From: Octopus vulgaris
Taxonomy: Eukaryota
Length of the DNA: 64,000 bases
Direction of reading: 5' to 3'
Assembly: GCA_951406725.2 (NCBI GenBank)
Contig: OX597839.1
Coordinates: 15,438,001-15,502,000, forward strand
Shown here piece by piece: positions 51,440-56,932 of this stretch (positions within the stretch are counted from its first letter, which is position 1; the number at the start of each line of letters is the position of its first letter). The notes beneath the pieces were generated by a model. The model saw nothing but the letters and a program-made list of their open reading frames with translations. It did not search any database and was not told the origin of the DNA. A program made the position numbers and the translations under genes.

Positions 51440-52131
<692 letters not shown>

Positions 52132-52222
52132 ACTTTGATACTTTGATACTTTGATAGGTTTCGGCCATTATTGGCCCAGGCCATGTCTAACTTAATAGCA
52201 CCACCTGGTGAAGTCTTTCAAG

Positions 52223-55200
52223 TCAGAATTTGGGCACTATGGCCCACTCAAGTAGAGAGTTATTGTTTACAGAGACATATCCGGGTGTAGGGGGTTTATC
52301 CGGGATTTCTTGAAGGAATCTGTCCAAAGACTTCTTGAACCCTATAGGGTCAGTTTCTGTTTTAATGTGTTTTGGTGTAATGTTAAAGAGAGCGGGGCCA
52401 ATTGAGGTGAAATAATTGTGCCGTATTGTTGTTATGAGATGAGAGTGCGATTTTTGTTTTGGGCGGATGGCACGGGGCCCAAGCCTTGGATGTACCTTAA
52501 AGGTGATGCCAACATCATTTGGGCAATGCTGATGGAATATTTTCCACATCATGCAGATGATGTAGCGCTCACGACGACGTTGGAGAGAATAGAGTTTTAG
52601 CTTTTCTAGTCGACCCCAATAGTCGAGGCCTGTCATGCCATCTATCTTTTTTGTGATTGCCCTTTGAGGTGCTTCGACTTTTATGATACCTTGTATTGTG
52701 TGGGGAGACCACAGTGGACAACAGTATTCAAGGTGGGGTCGGGCAAAAGTGGAGAAGAGAAGGATAATGGTGTGGATATCTCTCGACTGGAAAGTTCTGA
52801 GAATCCAGGAACACATTCTGCGGGCCATGTCAACTTTGGTGTTTATATGAGTGGCCCAGCTTACGTTGTTGTCCACAATTACTCCCAAGTCTCTGATGTT
52901 GTTGGACGCCGTGAGAGTTTCACCTGAAGGAAGGGAGTATGGGAGTTTCAGGGCATCCTCTTTTCCAAAGTGGATTAGCTCAAATTTATCCTCGTTCAGC
53001 AGCATATTGTTTTTTTCTGCCCATTGGATAACAGCCAGTAGATCTGACTGAAGGCATGTCCGGTCACTCGCCTCATTTATGACCTTCTGTAGCTTGGAGT
53101 CATCTGCAAAGATTTTTATGTTGCTGTGCTTGATGATGTCATTAATGTCATTAATGTAAATGATGAAAAGAAGTGGGCCCAGCACAGTGCCTTGCGGAAC
53201 GCCACTACTGACTTTGGCTGGGCTTGATTTTACCCCTTCAACTACAACATGTTGAGATCTGTCTGTCAGGAAACACTTAATCCATTTCAGTAACTTTCCA
53301 GAGACACCAATGTTGGATAGTTTTTTCAATAGGATCTTGTGATCGACCCTGTCGAAGGCCTTACTGAAATCAAGGTAGATGACATCGGTGTTGGAGCCCT
53401 CTCCCAAAGCTCTCAAAATGTCCTCAAAGTGATGCAGGAGCTGCGTTAGGCAGTCCCTTCCATTACGGAACCCATGTTGGTTGGAGATCAGCCGTCTGTT
53501 GCTTTCCAGAAATTGGGTTATTTGAGATCTCACCACCCTCTCAAATACCTTGATGATATGAGAGGTGAGTGAGATCGGACGGTAATTCACTGCAAGGGAC
53601 TTGTTTCCCTTTTTGAAAACTGGGACAACAGACTGGGACAGAAGGTTTTTTGGAATATAGCCAGCATCCAGTGAGTTTCTCCACAGATTAGCAAGGGGAG
53701 ATGCAAGTTGGTGTCGACACACCTTCAGGACACAAGCAGGGAACCTATCGGGGCCTACTGCTGAATTGTGTTTTATTTCGTTTATCGCCGCTAAGACATC
53801 AGGGGCACTAAACGTTATGTCCGATATAGTGTGTTGGGGGTTGACATCACTGATACAGCCCAGATCGGCCATATCAGGATTGCTGAAAACAGAGCAGTAT
53901 TGTTTCTGCAGTATCTCGGCCATGGATTTGGCATTATCTTGGAGAGTGCCAGTTTCGTCAATTAGAGGGCCTACAGTGGAGACAGTGACCCTGCGTTTCC
54001 TCGCAAATGAAAAGAACACTTTGGGGTTGAGTTTGATTTTTTCAATGGCCCACTTCTCCTCAGCTGATCTTTGGTTATTGATGAGGGACTTCATGCATTG
54101 TTGGAGGTTATATTTTTTGGATTCAAGCAGTGCGATAGCCGTCGAATGTGTGTGTTGCTGTTGGCAGTACTTTAGTTTGTTAATTTTTTTGTTTGTTCTT
54201 TTTATTTTTCTGATAATGGTTTTTCTGTTTTGGGGGATTCTGCACTTTTTGTTCACAGGTCTTGGTGGGGAGTGTTTTGCACATATGTCTGTGACGGTGT
54301 CTACAAAGATCTGCCAAGATGTTTTATGGTTGGTGGAGATGTGTGTATGTGTAAAGGACCAGTCAACATTTGATAGCTCGTTCCTGATTGCATCCCAGTT
54401 GGCTTTATGGAGATCCATGTTGTCAAATGGGTGGGCTGGAGGAAGGTCACTAGGATTAGCTTTCGGCTGGTGGAATTTCATGTTACAGAGAACCATGTCA
54501 TGGTCTGAAAGAAGGGTTTTTTCCACTGTAACGTTATGTATAGTGTTAGTGTGGTTACTAAACACTAGGTCCAAAATGTTCTGATGTCTTGTTGGTGCAA
54601 GGACAAGTTGGGACAAGAAAAACTCATTCGTAAAGTCGAAAAGTGACTCTGCTGCTTCTTTGTCAGCGGTTGAGGCGGGAGTGCTTGGTTTCAAACAGTT
54701 TGTAGTCCAGTCAACACAGGGTAGATTGAAGTCTCCCATCATGAGTATGTTGCTAGAATGGCACTGTTGAATAAAGCACTTAATGCTGTTGAGGCATTCT
54801 TTAAAGCACAGTATGGGTGTTTGGGGCGGCCTATAGAGTCCAATTACTGTCAGATCATTGGCTTTGTTGTGCACGGTGACTGATTCACAGTAGCCGTTGG
54901 AGAATATACTATTTCCATCTGCCGTAAATGAATCATGCAGGAAAATGGCAGTTCCACCCTTCCTCCTGCCGATACGATCCGCGCGGATGGTTGTGAAATT
55001 CTTCACTCTCACTTCGGCTTCCAAGTGGGAGTTGTCAAGGTGGGTCTCAGTGAGAATGAAGAAAGGGATGTGGTGTGAATGGTTACCAACCCAGTCTTCA
55101 ATGAATTGGACCTTCCATTTTTGTGCATTGATGGAAGGGCTGACACCTTGTGCATTGAGTAGGAATGTGGAGGTTAGTGTAGTGGCTGGTTTTGACTGTT

Positions 55201-55258
55201 GCAGGGGGCTTGGATTTTTTGTGTGTGTTAGTGGCAGCAATGTGGGGAATTGGTGCAC
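52223..55258 (-). CDS. LINE C ORF2: APE endonuclease + reverse transcriptase
   Basis: 1011 uninterrupted codons; LNAQG, TETH, YRPP, GDFN, SDH, QHGF, PQG, FADD. The frame is open from 55354; the first AUG is only at 54742. Confidence 0.95.
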   Translation of the reverse strand: MHQFPTLLPLTHTKNPSPLQQSKPATTLTSTFLLNAQGVSPSINAQKWKVQFIEDWVGNHSHHIPFFILTETHLDNSHLEAEVRVKNFTTIRADRIGRRKGGTAIFLHDSFTADGNSIFSNGYCESVTVHNKANDLTVIGLYRPPQTPILCFKECLNSIKCFIQQCHSSNILMMGDFNLPCVDWTTNCLKPSTPASTADKEAAESLFDFTNEFFLSQLVLAPTRHQNILDLVFSNHTNTIHNVTVEKTLLSDHDMVLCNMKFHQPKANPSDLPPAHPFDNMDLHKANWDAIRNELSNVDWSFTHTHISTNHKTSWQIFVDTVTDICAKHSPPRPVNKKCRIPQNRKTIIRKIKRTNKKINKLKYCQQQHTHSTAIALLESKKYNLQQCMKSLINNQRSAEEKWAIEKIKLNPKVFFSFARKRRVTVSTVGPLIDETGTLQDNAKSMAEILQKQYCSVFSNPDMADLGCISDVNPQHTISDITFSAPDVLAAINEIKHNSAVGPDRFPACVLKVCRHQLASPLANLWRNSLDAGYIPKNLLSQSVVPVFKKGNKSLAVNYRPISLTSHIIKVFERVVRSQITQFLESNRRLISNQHGFRNGRDCLTQLLHHFEDILRALGEGSNTDVIYLDFSKAFDRVDHKILLKKLSNIGVSGKLLKWIKCFLTDRSQHVVVEGVKSSPAKVSSGVPQGTVLGPLLFIIYINDINDIIKHSNIKIFADDSKLQKVINEASDRTCLQSDLLAVIQWAEKNNMLLNEDKFELIHFGKEDALKLPYSLPSGETLTASNNIRDLGVIVDNNVSWATHINTKVDMARRMCSWILRTFQSRDIHTIILLFSTFARPHLEYCCPLWSPHTIQGIIKVEAPQRAITKKIDGMTGLDYWGRLEKLKLYSLQRRRERYIICMMWKIFHQHCPNDVGITFKVHPRLGPRAIRPKQKSHSHLITTIRHNYFTSIGPALFNITPKHIKTETDPIGFKKSLDRFLQEIPDKPPTPGYVSVNNNSLLEWAIVPKF

Positions 55259-56457
55259 TGGGGTAATAGCATAGGATGGTGTTGAGTGATGGCTAGAATG
55301 TTTTTGTGTATCTCTTTTGCCATGTTCAACATGGCTAAAAAAGAATTTTCCTGCTTAGGGAGCAGTTTTTGGCTGGAGGTGTGGTTGCACTGTTGGATAG
55401 GGTTGTAGTTTCCACTTTTGTTGTTGTTGTTTTTGTGTCTTCCTGAAAAGACTGGACCAGCATTACTGCAGCATGGTGTGTTTCTATTTTTATTGTTATT
55501 CAGGTTTGTGTGTTGGCTTGAGGCCCCGTTTCTGTTTGTGCGTCGGGTCCCTGGAAGATGAGTGAAGGGACAGTCACTCAGTAGACATGTTCTCTCACGT
55601 TGGGAATACCGGCAGATTTTGGGACTCCGAGTTGTGTGTGTTTTGAATTTCGATTTACTATTTGGTGGTGTTGATGTTATTGTGGGATGCGTGCTTTGGC
55701 CTTGGCCAGTAGTGCGTCTAGTGCCGGGTAGATGCGTGAAGATGCAGTCACTATTTGTGCAGAGTCTCTGGCGCAGTGAATAGCGGCATATTTGGGGATT
55801 TCTTGTTTGTGCCGTGGGGGGCGCATTCTGCTTCCTATGTTTCTTTAAGTTTTTGTTACTGCAGTAGTATTGAGGTGGTGATGTGGGGGAAGAGGGCAGT
55901 GGTTTCTTATTTGGTTTTCTGTTGGTATTTTTGGTGATAGAAGACGATGGTGGCAGCGGTGGTGATGATGATGATGATAATTGTGGTGGTTGCTGTGAGA
56001 GCGGTGAAAAGATACTGGCATTTAGTGAATCGTCTAGTAAGCTAGAGTTGAGGAGTGGCTGTTGTTGTTCTTGTTGCTGTGGCTGTTGTTGTTGTTGTTG
56101 TGCCTGACCGATGTCAGGGTCAGCCATTGTGTTGGGAACCAGGAGTGGCTCATTCTGTTGTTGTTGTTGTTGTGGCTGCTGATTTTCTAGCTGTTGTTGT
56201 TCTTGAACTGTGAAAATATGTAGAAGCTTTTCATAATGGCCTCTTATCAGTTTGAAAGATACTTCGATATGTTTCAACTTGCTACGAATCTGTTTGACGG
56301 ATCGTGTGTTGACCACTTGTGATGTTTTTTCGGCAATCTCATTCAAACACAAGACATTTAGATTTTCTGTTTGGGAAAGAGAGAGCCATGTGTTTATTAA
56401 AACATCAATTTCGTTATCAGACCAATTTCGTCTGTTGCAGGCCTGCAAGTTAGTCAT
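55228..56457 (-). CDS. LINE C ORF1: Myb/SANT-like N-terminus, polyQ tract, two CCCH zinc fingers
   Basis: 409 aa from ATG; NWSDNEIDVLINTW..RSVKQIRSKLKHI; two copies of ICRYS-x5-C-x4-C-x3-HLPGTRRT. Confidence 0.85.
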   Translation of the reverse strand: MTNLQACNRRNWSDNEIDVLINTWLSLSQTENLNVLCLNEIAEKTSQVVNTRSVKQIRSKLKHIEVSFKLIRGHYEKLLHIFTVQEQQQLENQQPQQQQQQNEPLLVPNTMADPDIGQAQQQQQQPQQQEQQQPLLNSSLLDDSLNASIFSPLSQQPPQLSSSSSPPLPPSSSITKNTNRKPNKKPLPSSPTSPPQYYCSNKNLKKHRKQNAPPTAQTRNPQICRYSLRQRLCTNSDCIFTHLPGTRRTTGQGQSTHPTITSTPPNSKSKFKTHTTRSPKICRYSQRERTCLLSDCPFTHLPGTRRTNRNGASSQHTNLNNNKNRNTPCCSNAGPVFSGRHKNNNNKSGNYNPIQQCNHTSSQKLLPKQENSFLAMLNMAKEIHKNILAITQHHPMLLPQCTNSPHCCH

Positions 56458-56784
56458 GTTTGTTTTTCTTTTGTTTGTTTTCCTTTTGATTTTTGAAAAT
56501 ATATATATTCTTTCTTGGGAGTTAAAGAAGTGTATATATATATAAATGTTCTCTCTTAAGGGTGTGAGTTTTTGATTATTTGGTTGTTTGAGGATATTAA
56601 AAGAAAAACAGGTGTATATAACAATTTGTAGTTAAATGAAAACGTACTTACGGGTTTGTAGGCAAACACGTGGTTACAAATATATATATATTTAAGGTCA
56701 GTTAGTTTTGAAGCTGTGTAGCTTGCTACTGACTCGGGAGAGAAACAAATAGACGTCCGTCCAGTTCAACAGTTAATCCACATC

Positions 56785-56932
56785 AGCAAGGGTCCCAAGA
56801 CTGTGCCCTGTGGCACCCCGCTTGCTATTGGTGTCTTTCCCGAGAGGGCTCCATTGGCTGCAACCATAAGCTGTCCTTCAGGAAGTCATGTATCCACTAC
56901 CTACTTTTCCTGTTATGCCGAGTCTGAGTATT
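56785..56932 (-). mobile_element. LINE family B internal RT fragment abutting the family C 5' end
   Basis: Matches 58553-58710 with small deletions. Confidence 0.85.

Follow-up and report, generated by a model that had tools for sequence, protein, structure and literature searches.

A conserved slippery heptamer in the ORF1/ORF2 overlap of octopus LINEs and their relatives suggests −1 ribosomal frameshifting

The window analysed here, a stretch of 64,000 nucleotides of Octopus vulgaris DNA, contains a full-length LINE (family C) in which −1 frameshifting on a U_UUU_UUA heptamer probably yields an ORF1-ORF2 fusion protein of about 1411 amino acids. In all 12 families of the lineage with a readable junction, ORF2 occupies the −1 frame, and the same ORF1 Phe marks the position of a slippery heptamer. 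The heptamer is conserved at the nucleotide level beyond the constraint of the encoded protein.

Results

The family C element

Family C is a young LINE family with at least 40 near-identical copies (40 of 960 genome candidates were scored, each about 100% identical over 1 kb), so its layout is not an accident of one copy. The parts of the copy in the window are as follows.

52131..56783, minus strand: full-length family C LINE, about 4.65 kb (5′ end from copies)
56458..56783, minus strand: 5′ UTR (from the sequence; 5′ end common to full-length copies)
55228..56457, minus strand: ORF1, 409 aa, first AUG in good context
56239..56433, minus strand: Myb/SANT-like region of ORF1 (Pfam, 25 bits, just below the cut-off of 27)
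55558..55788, minus strand: two CCCH-like Cys/His motifs of ORF1 (pattern match)
52223..55354, minus strand: ORF2 frame, 1043 codons, with linker, APE endonuclease and RT (residues 583-825)
52176..52208, minus strand: 3′ UTR stem-loop (predicted fold)
52131..52156, minus strand: terminal short tandem repeats, about 3 copies of an 8-nt unit, that pass into a TA microsatellite

Family C has the features of an APE-type non-LTR element (LINE): APE and RT domains, both assigned to ORF2 by Pfam, dispersed copies, many of which are 5′-truncated, and a repeat tail. Self-BLAST revealed no terminal repeat, and hence no LTR, and Pfam found no protease, integrase or LTR in the element. From the resemblance of its motifs we tentatively take family C to be CR1-like. 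In an alignment, N67 (at 55156), E103 and Y174 of ORF2 match N14, E43 and Y115 of the L1 endonuclease, and these residues are presumably catalytic in family C as well. Pfam also gave a weak zf-CCCH match in ORF1 of family A, a relative in the same window.

A TA microsatellite lies at the 5′ side in all nine family C copies examined for it (flanks of L006-L026); for the copy in the window, by contrast, the neighbour is an RT fragment belonging to a different LINE (56775-56885). The 3′ stem-loop is almost identical in family D (3′ end of L219), despite endonucleases that are 60% identical, and families A, B and L131 have a related 3′ stem-loop in common.

The ORF1/ORF2 junction

The junction of family C comprises the following features.

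55355..55357, minus strand: stop codon TAA opening the ORF2 (−1) frame
55336..55342, minus strand: U_UUU_UUA, the slippery heptamer, in frame with ORF1 (Phe-Leu)
55319..55335, minus strand: 7-bp hairpin without spacer, not conserved, unlikely to be a stimulator
55231..55354, minus strand: ORF1/ORF2 overlap, 41 codons, encoding the helix-like C-terminal peptide of ORF1 in frame 0 and a stop-free linker in frame −1
55235..55240, minus strand: ORF2-frame codons UUG and CUG, located 10 and 7 nt ahead of the ORF1 stop, a rival non-AUG start

The minus strand reads as it had been quoted in an earlier sequence-only reading of this DNA, which had also claimed, correctly, that the heptamer is in frame with ORF1, four codons past the opening TAA (a distance of 12 nt), and that the −1 frame then stays open into the endonuclease. 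ORF1 itself ends at a stop codon at 55230-55228 (minus strand). Two features of a −1 frameshift signal are present: the heptamer is in phase with the zero frame, and the −1 frame is open from the site and closed upstream of it. The earlier reading had placed the first AUG of the ORF2 frame at about residue 173; it is in fact codon 205 (54742), although it does lie, as stated there, beyond the N, E and Y motifs. A start at this AUG would therefore give a broken endonuclease. No AUG precedes the endonuclease in family C, and no near-cognate start codon was found between the opening stop and the heptamer.

The heptamer is present in 30 of the 30 best-matching family C copies, a sample that is biased because the query contained the site. 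Five family C copies with a visible site came from the Pfam search and were thus found without query bias; the site is intact in one of them, has a point change in one, is one base short in two and two bases short in one. This counts against the frameshift reading; the copies concerned are older and low-ranked, and the T-run is mutable. A longer or shorter T-run unites the ORF1 and ORF2 frames in L228, L230, L234, L226 (family C2) and L112 (family C), which were chosen for long open frames and so give no estimate of frequency.

Conservation of the site among relatives

The 12 families consist of C, its sister C2, D, A and B from this genome and seven families from 12 metagenome contigs. Their APE domains are 29-61% identical among 11 of them, and C2 is 72% identical to C (151/209); a quick APE tree served only for grouping the families. 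Two conditions that the sequence-only reading had named as refuting, a heptamer that is not conserved and an in-frame AUG before the endonuclease, did not hold: every related family read has a heptamer, and family C has no such AUG. The site is U_UUU_UUR in nine families, A_AAU_UUU in B, G_GAU_UUU in the L124 group and G_UUU_UUA in the L126 group. Sites beginning with G_GA and G_UU are listed among slippery variants, and G_GAU_UUU is a viral site, in the part of PMC5009743 consulted. The heptamer is shifted upstream by one codon in the two cases, B and the L124 group, in which a codon other than UUR follows Phe; selection on the protein does not explain this switch.

The site was also followed in the copies of each octopus family. 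In family A, ORF2 is 36% identical and the heptamer, three codons past the opening stop, occurs in 20 of the 20 best copies; its junction lies in the same window.

4833..5007, plus strand: family A junction, with the opening TGA at 4833-4835, U_UUU_UUG at 4845-4851 and the ORF1 stop at 5005-5007

Family D has U_UUU_UUA one codon past the opening stop (10 of 30 Pfam loci, most of the others being 5′-truncated), and in family B, 9 of 20 loci have A_AAU_UUU at the corresponding position, one being altered and many truncated. Among seven top loci of C2, five have U_UUU_UUA, one has a point change and in one the run is displaced after a deletion.

An AUG before the catalytic Asn codon is absent in eight of the 12 families and present in four (A, D, C2 and L131). 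Family A has ORF2-frame AUGs at codons 26 and 54. The upstream AUG lies 10 nt before the ORF1 stop in A and 7 nt before it in C2, where family C has a CUG. These codons bear on termination-reinitiation, by which ribosomes that have finished ORF1 would resume translation in the ORF2 frame at an AUG or near-cognate codon close by (CUG or UUG in family C), making ORF2p as a separate protein. This is the mechanism reported for the LINEs tested in the parts of PMC2881922 and PMC10275272 consulted, and the distance from the end of ORF1 to the catalytic Asn codon is always 2-80 nt, as would suit reinitiation. An AUG of the SART1 type, overlapping or beside the ORF1 stop, occurs in A and C2 but not in family C. 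No start-like codon lies between −45 and +60 nt of the stop in D and L133, however, and in the other families such codons are scattered and in poor context. Moreover, reinitiation leaves unexplained both the conserved heptamer, 37-96 codons upstream of the ORF1 stop, and the −1 frame that is free of stops from there on. We consider it unlikely as the explanation of the junction, though, given the AUGs of A and C2 and the CUG of C, it may operate alongside frameshifting.

Chance, codon constraint and selection

We compared the site with a null model in which the same four residues are encoded by synonymous codons drawn from the codon usage of each element (11 families; C2, found later, was left out). 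The chance of a heptamer at the Phe ranged from 0.012 to 0.33 per family. The joint probability was 1e-14.9 for the 11 families and 1e-12.8 for the nine strict sites, values that overstate independence because the families share ancestry and the Phe anchor is post hoc. With one family per deep lineage (seven families), the product of the per-family values was still about 1e-9. Neither the Phe anchor nor the two non-strict sites had been specified before the data were seen, but the margin is large even so.

The conserved Phe-Leu motif opens the helix-like C-terminal segment of ORF1, and the heptamer might be a by-product of this motif, with no role at the RNA level. Selection on the ORF1 frame is indeed visible in the overlap: substitutions between close relatives are mostly silent in this frame (third positions), and the −1 frame changes freely. 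This pattern indicates that the ORF1 tail is under protein selection and that the −1 frame is merely kept open, as a linker would be. The ORF1 peptides of the overlap are 7-23% identical to that of family C, F and L being the only nearly invariant residues. Codon choice, in contrast, argues strongly against the by-product reading. UUU is the minority Phe codon at control positions of the same elements (167 of 426), yet it is used at 12 of 12 sites; control Phe-Leu pairs are written UUU-UUR in one of 57 cases, and control Phe codons carry a strict heptamer in 9 of 426 and an extended one in 18 of 426. In addition, ORF2 would still need a start. We regard this reading as scarcely credible.

Across 693 overlap codons the −1 frame has no stop, whereas 53 stops fall in the 634 codons that precede them; read in the +1 frame, the overlaps contain 54. 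The joint probability that all −1 overlaps stay open under synonymous shuffles is 1e-10.75.

Processes at the RNA level

Two further explanations place the change of frame in the RNA. In one, the U-run and a following AG would be a 3′ splice site joining an upstream exon to the ORF2 frame. Family C does have a pyrimidine tract followed by UAG at the site and a donor-like GTAAGT in its 5′ UTR, and an AG follows the run in L131, L133, L134 and C2 also; the AG is missing, however, in seven of the 12 families, and the first AUG past the site is in the ORF1 frame. In the other, transcriptional slippage would add one U to the run and bring ORF2 into frame. The run is mutable in DNA (copies have 4, 5 and 7 T), but it is just six long, with four in B and the L124 group and five in the L126 group, and what is conserved is its phase relative to the ORF1 codons.

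Contigs of eight of the 24 listed runs, which are only guessed to be RNA, cross the junction with neither an indel nor a joint. This speaks against slippage, and against splicing with the reservation that contigs drop rare forms. We judge splicing very improbable, and transcriptional slippage deserves equally little credence.

The sequence 3′ of the heptamer

Frameshifting at the heptamer could be aided by a 3′ stimulator, for which the sequence-only reading had pointed, with doubt, to a GCCATGT-TGA-ACATGGC hairpin. The hairpin is real and has a spacer of 0, as described (−8.3 kcal/mol), but its proposed role was not upheld, and we rejected it as a stimulator since it falls inside the ribosome footprint and is not conserved in relatives. 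By established geometry, a structure with no spacer lies within that footprint. The 100 nt after the family C heptamer fold no better than shuffled sequences (z −0.71), and 45-nt windows gave no sign of a conserved 3′ structure in any of the 14 junctions (z between −1.7 and +1.7). With 70-nt windows z fell below −2 only in C (−2.2), B (−3.4) and L134 (−2.5).

Pairing of the sequence after the heptamer with the 3′ end of the element was clear in one of eight lineage families, L133. There, sequence 8 nt past the heptamer is complementary over 11 bp to part of the element's last 40 nt, which gave the best match among about 230 windows. In family C this pairing ranked 0.04 at spacer 0 and only 0.75 and 0.96 at longer spacers; in D it ranked 0.02 in one of three windows, and in A, B, L126, L130 and L131 it was not significant. 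Probably the heptamer acts by itself and with low efficiency, or together with an element that these folds cannot reveal.

Distant relatives

Two more distant families of this genome also have a −1 overlap without AUG. In family E, G_GGA_AAC immediately precedes the ORF1 stop (10 of 12 copies), and family F has G_GGU_UUU and G_GGU_UUA (11 of 12 copies). In all seven octopus families whose junction is readable, the −1 overlap includes a strict heptamer in phase with ORF1.

Searches of outside collections returned 73 loci, 43 of which contain the start of the endonuclease; the viral and prokaryote collections contributed one and seven loci, respectively, of which one was useful (L187). One of the 13 closest loci is cut inside the overlap; in the other 12 (seven families) the −1 overlap spans 66-107 codons and a slippery heptamer occurs at the ORF1 Phe. 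No ORF1 was called in 12 of the 30 more distant loci, although L142 and L147 among these still have a heptamer in the −1 arrangement. The 18 distant loci with an ORF1 are diverse: three (L138, L143 and L155) have a −1 overlap with a heptamer and no AUG, the family L158/L160 has a −1 overlap with an AUG and no heptamer, loci with a +1 overlap have an AUG in three of four cases, three have ORF1 in frame behind a single stop, and six show no overlap or a doubtful ORF1 call.

The heptamer stands directly before the ORF1 stop in several distant families (L102/L194-L205 of this genome; L147 and L155), as G_GGA_AAC-UAA, G_GGA_AAC-UAG and A_AAA_AAC-UGA, and L142/L143 have A_AAU_UUU one codon past the opening stop. 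At L187:1474-1482, L171:951-959, L173:2889-2897 (and L174) and L172:378-386, ORF1, where intact, is in frame with the endonuclease behind a single UGA. The codon after this UGA is CUA in three unrelated contig families and CAA in one, and the CUA cases have no AUG before the endonuclease. UGA-CUA and UGA-CAA are readthrough-prone contexts.

Some relatives encode long single frames. In P0022 (a single record), CCCH fingers and ORF2 form one frame of 1185 aa, suggesting that an ORF1-ORF2 fusion is tolerated; a search for further single-frame CCCH-ORF2 proteins returned P0022 alone. L109 and L110, considered as in-frame fusions, were rejected, being one base short. P0044 and P0045 each have one long ORF, of 1761 and 1418 aa, respectively, and P0044 carries, ahead of the endonuclease, PF02338, which we take to be the OTU protease family.

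We tentatively suggest, with slightly less than even confidence, that −1 frameshifting may be ordinary for a large part of the CR1-like LINEs, with UGA-CUA readthrough in other branches and an AUG in the branches with a +1 overlap.

Discussion

The earlier proposal of an ORF1-ORF2 fusion is supported by the heptamer conserved in 12 families and by the lack of an AUG in family C. The frames, the heptamer, its conservation and the absence of AUG were computed directly, and from these we infer the fates of ribosomes. Ribosomes would initiate by scanning at the ORF1 AUG, and most would finish ORF1, giving a protein of 409 aa that ends in the conserved helix-like segment. A small share would slip back by one base on U_UUU_UUA. 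The shifted product would keep the N-terminal 374 residues of ORF1, with the Myb-like and CCCH-like regions, and the helix would be replaced by a free linker of about 55 residues read in the −1 frame, followed by endonuclease and RT. A low ratio of ORF2 to ORF1 would thus be set without a second initiation.

Given a conserved −1 site, the active enzyme of these elements would be an ORF1-ORF2 fusion that stays unprocessed and carries Myb-like and zinc-finger modules, which bears on the assembly of the RNP and on the choice of target (copies lie in TA microsatellites). It also affects the annotation of ORF2, which gene callers start at a downstream Met or at a near-cognate codon. As family C is young and has many near-identical copies, an active reporter construct should be easy to build, and the site offers a precise and cheap test.

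The translation of ORF2 in two-ORF LINEs is called an open question in the part of PMC3894237 consulted. Our literature search, with most subscription papers and Repbase reports outside its reach, did not turn up any account of a conserved slippery site for CR1-type LINEs of animals. The word frameshift does not occur in PMC4120745 or, by a term search, in a 2026 CR1 survey (PMC13343379), and the consulted parts of PMC1925062, PMC11203168 and PMC5006619 hold nothing on slippery sites in these elements. Atlas searches returned no name or clade. Turtle PsCR1 reportedly has a −1 overlap.

In its APE-RT ORF2 with no RNase H, its 3′ stem-loop and its short-repeat tail, family C resembles the LINEs of the CR1/L2 lineage of the Jockey superfamily as described in the part of Metcalfe and Casane 2014 (PMC4120745) consulted. 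Unlike the ORF1 types in Table 1 of that paper (PHD, RRM, CCHC, Tnp22 and esterase), however, its ORF1 is Myb-like and CCCH-like.

Like SART1 and human L1, family C would have a bicistronic RNA in which ORF2 depends on the translation of ORF1 (PMC2881922, PMC3894237 and PMC10275272, in part). According to the consulted parts of PMC2881922 and PMC10275272, SART1 (UAAUG coupling) and L1 (AUG-independent reinitiation) make a separate ORF2p, starting at or after the ORF1 stop. Family C, in contrast, has a −1 overlap of 41 codons, no UAAUG and no AUG for 204 codons.

Frameshifting has been raised for other non-LTR elements. It is stated for the gag of HeT-A, and for Paramecium LINEs a +1 shift, reinitiation or readthrough was suggested (PMC5405496, in part). 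For ORF2 of the APE-type Dictyostelium elements TRE5-A and TRE3-A, both of which are said to need a −1 frameshift, it was already proposed (PMC5911963, in part); what appears to be new here is a conserved site in animal CR1-type LINEs. The TRE elements are amoebal, and the part of PMC5911963 consulted names neither a slippery site nor an experiment; our proposal for family C rests on conservation of the site in 12 families.

The closest parallel is with retroviral gag-pol. HIV-1 uses the same heptamer, of the X_XXY_YYZ class (PMC5009743, in part), in frame with an upstream RNA-binding ORF, and in family C too the enzyme ORF lies in the −1 frame without a start of its own and the predicted fusion is a minor protein. 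Unlike retroviruses, family C is a non-LTR element with APE and RT, has no predicted stem-loop at a spacer of 5-9 nt and no protease to cut the fusion. If −1 frameshifting is indeed ordinary among CR1-like LINEs, these elements would share the gag-pol strategy of retroviruses, with the DNA/RNA-binding modules of ORF1 joined to the endonuclease.
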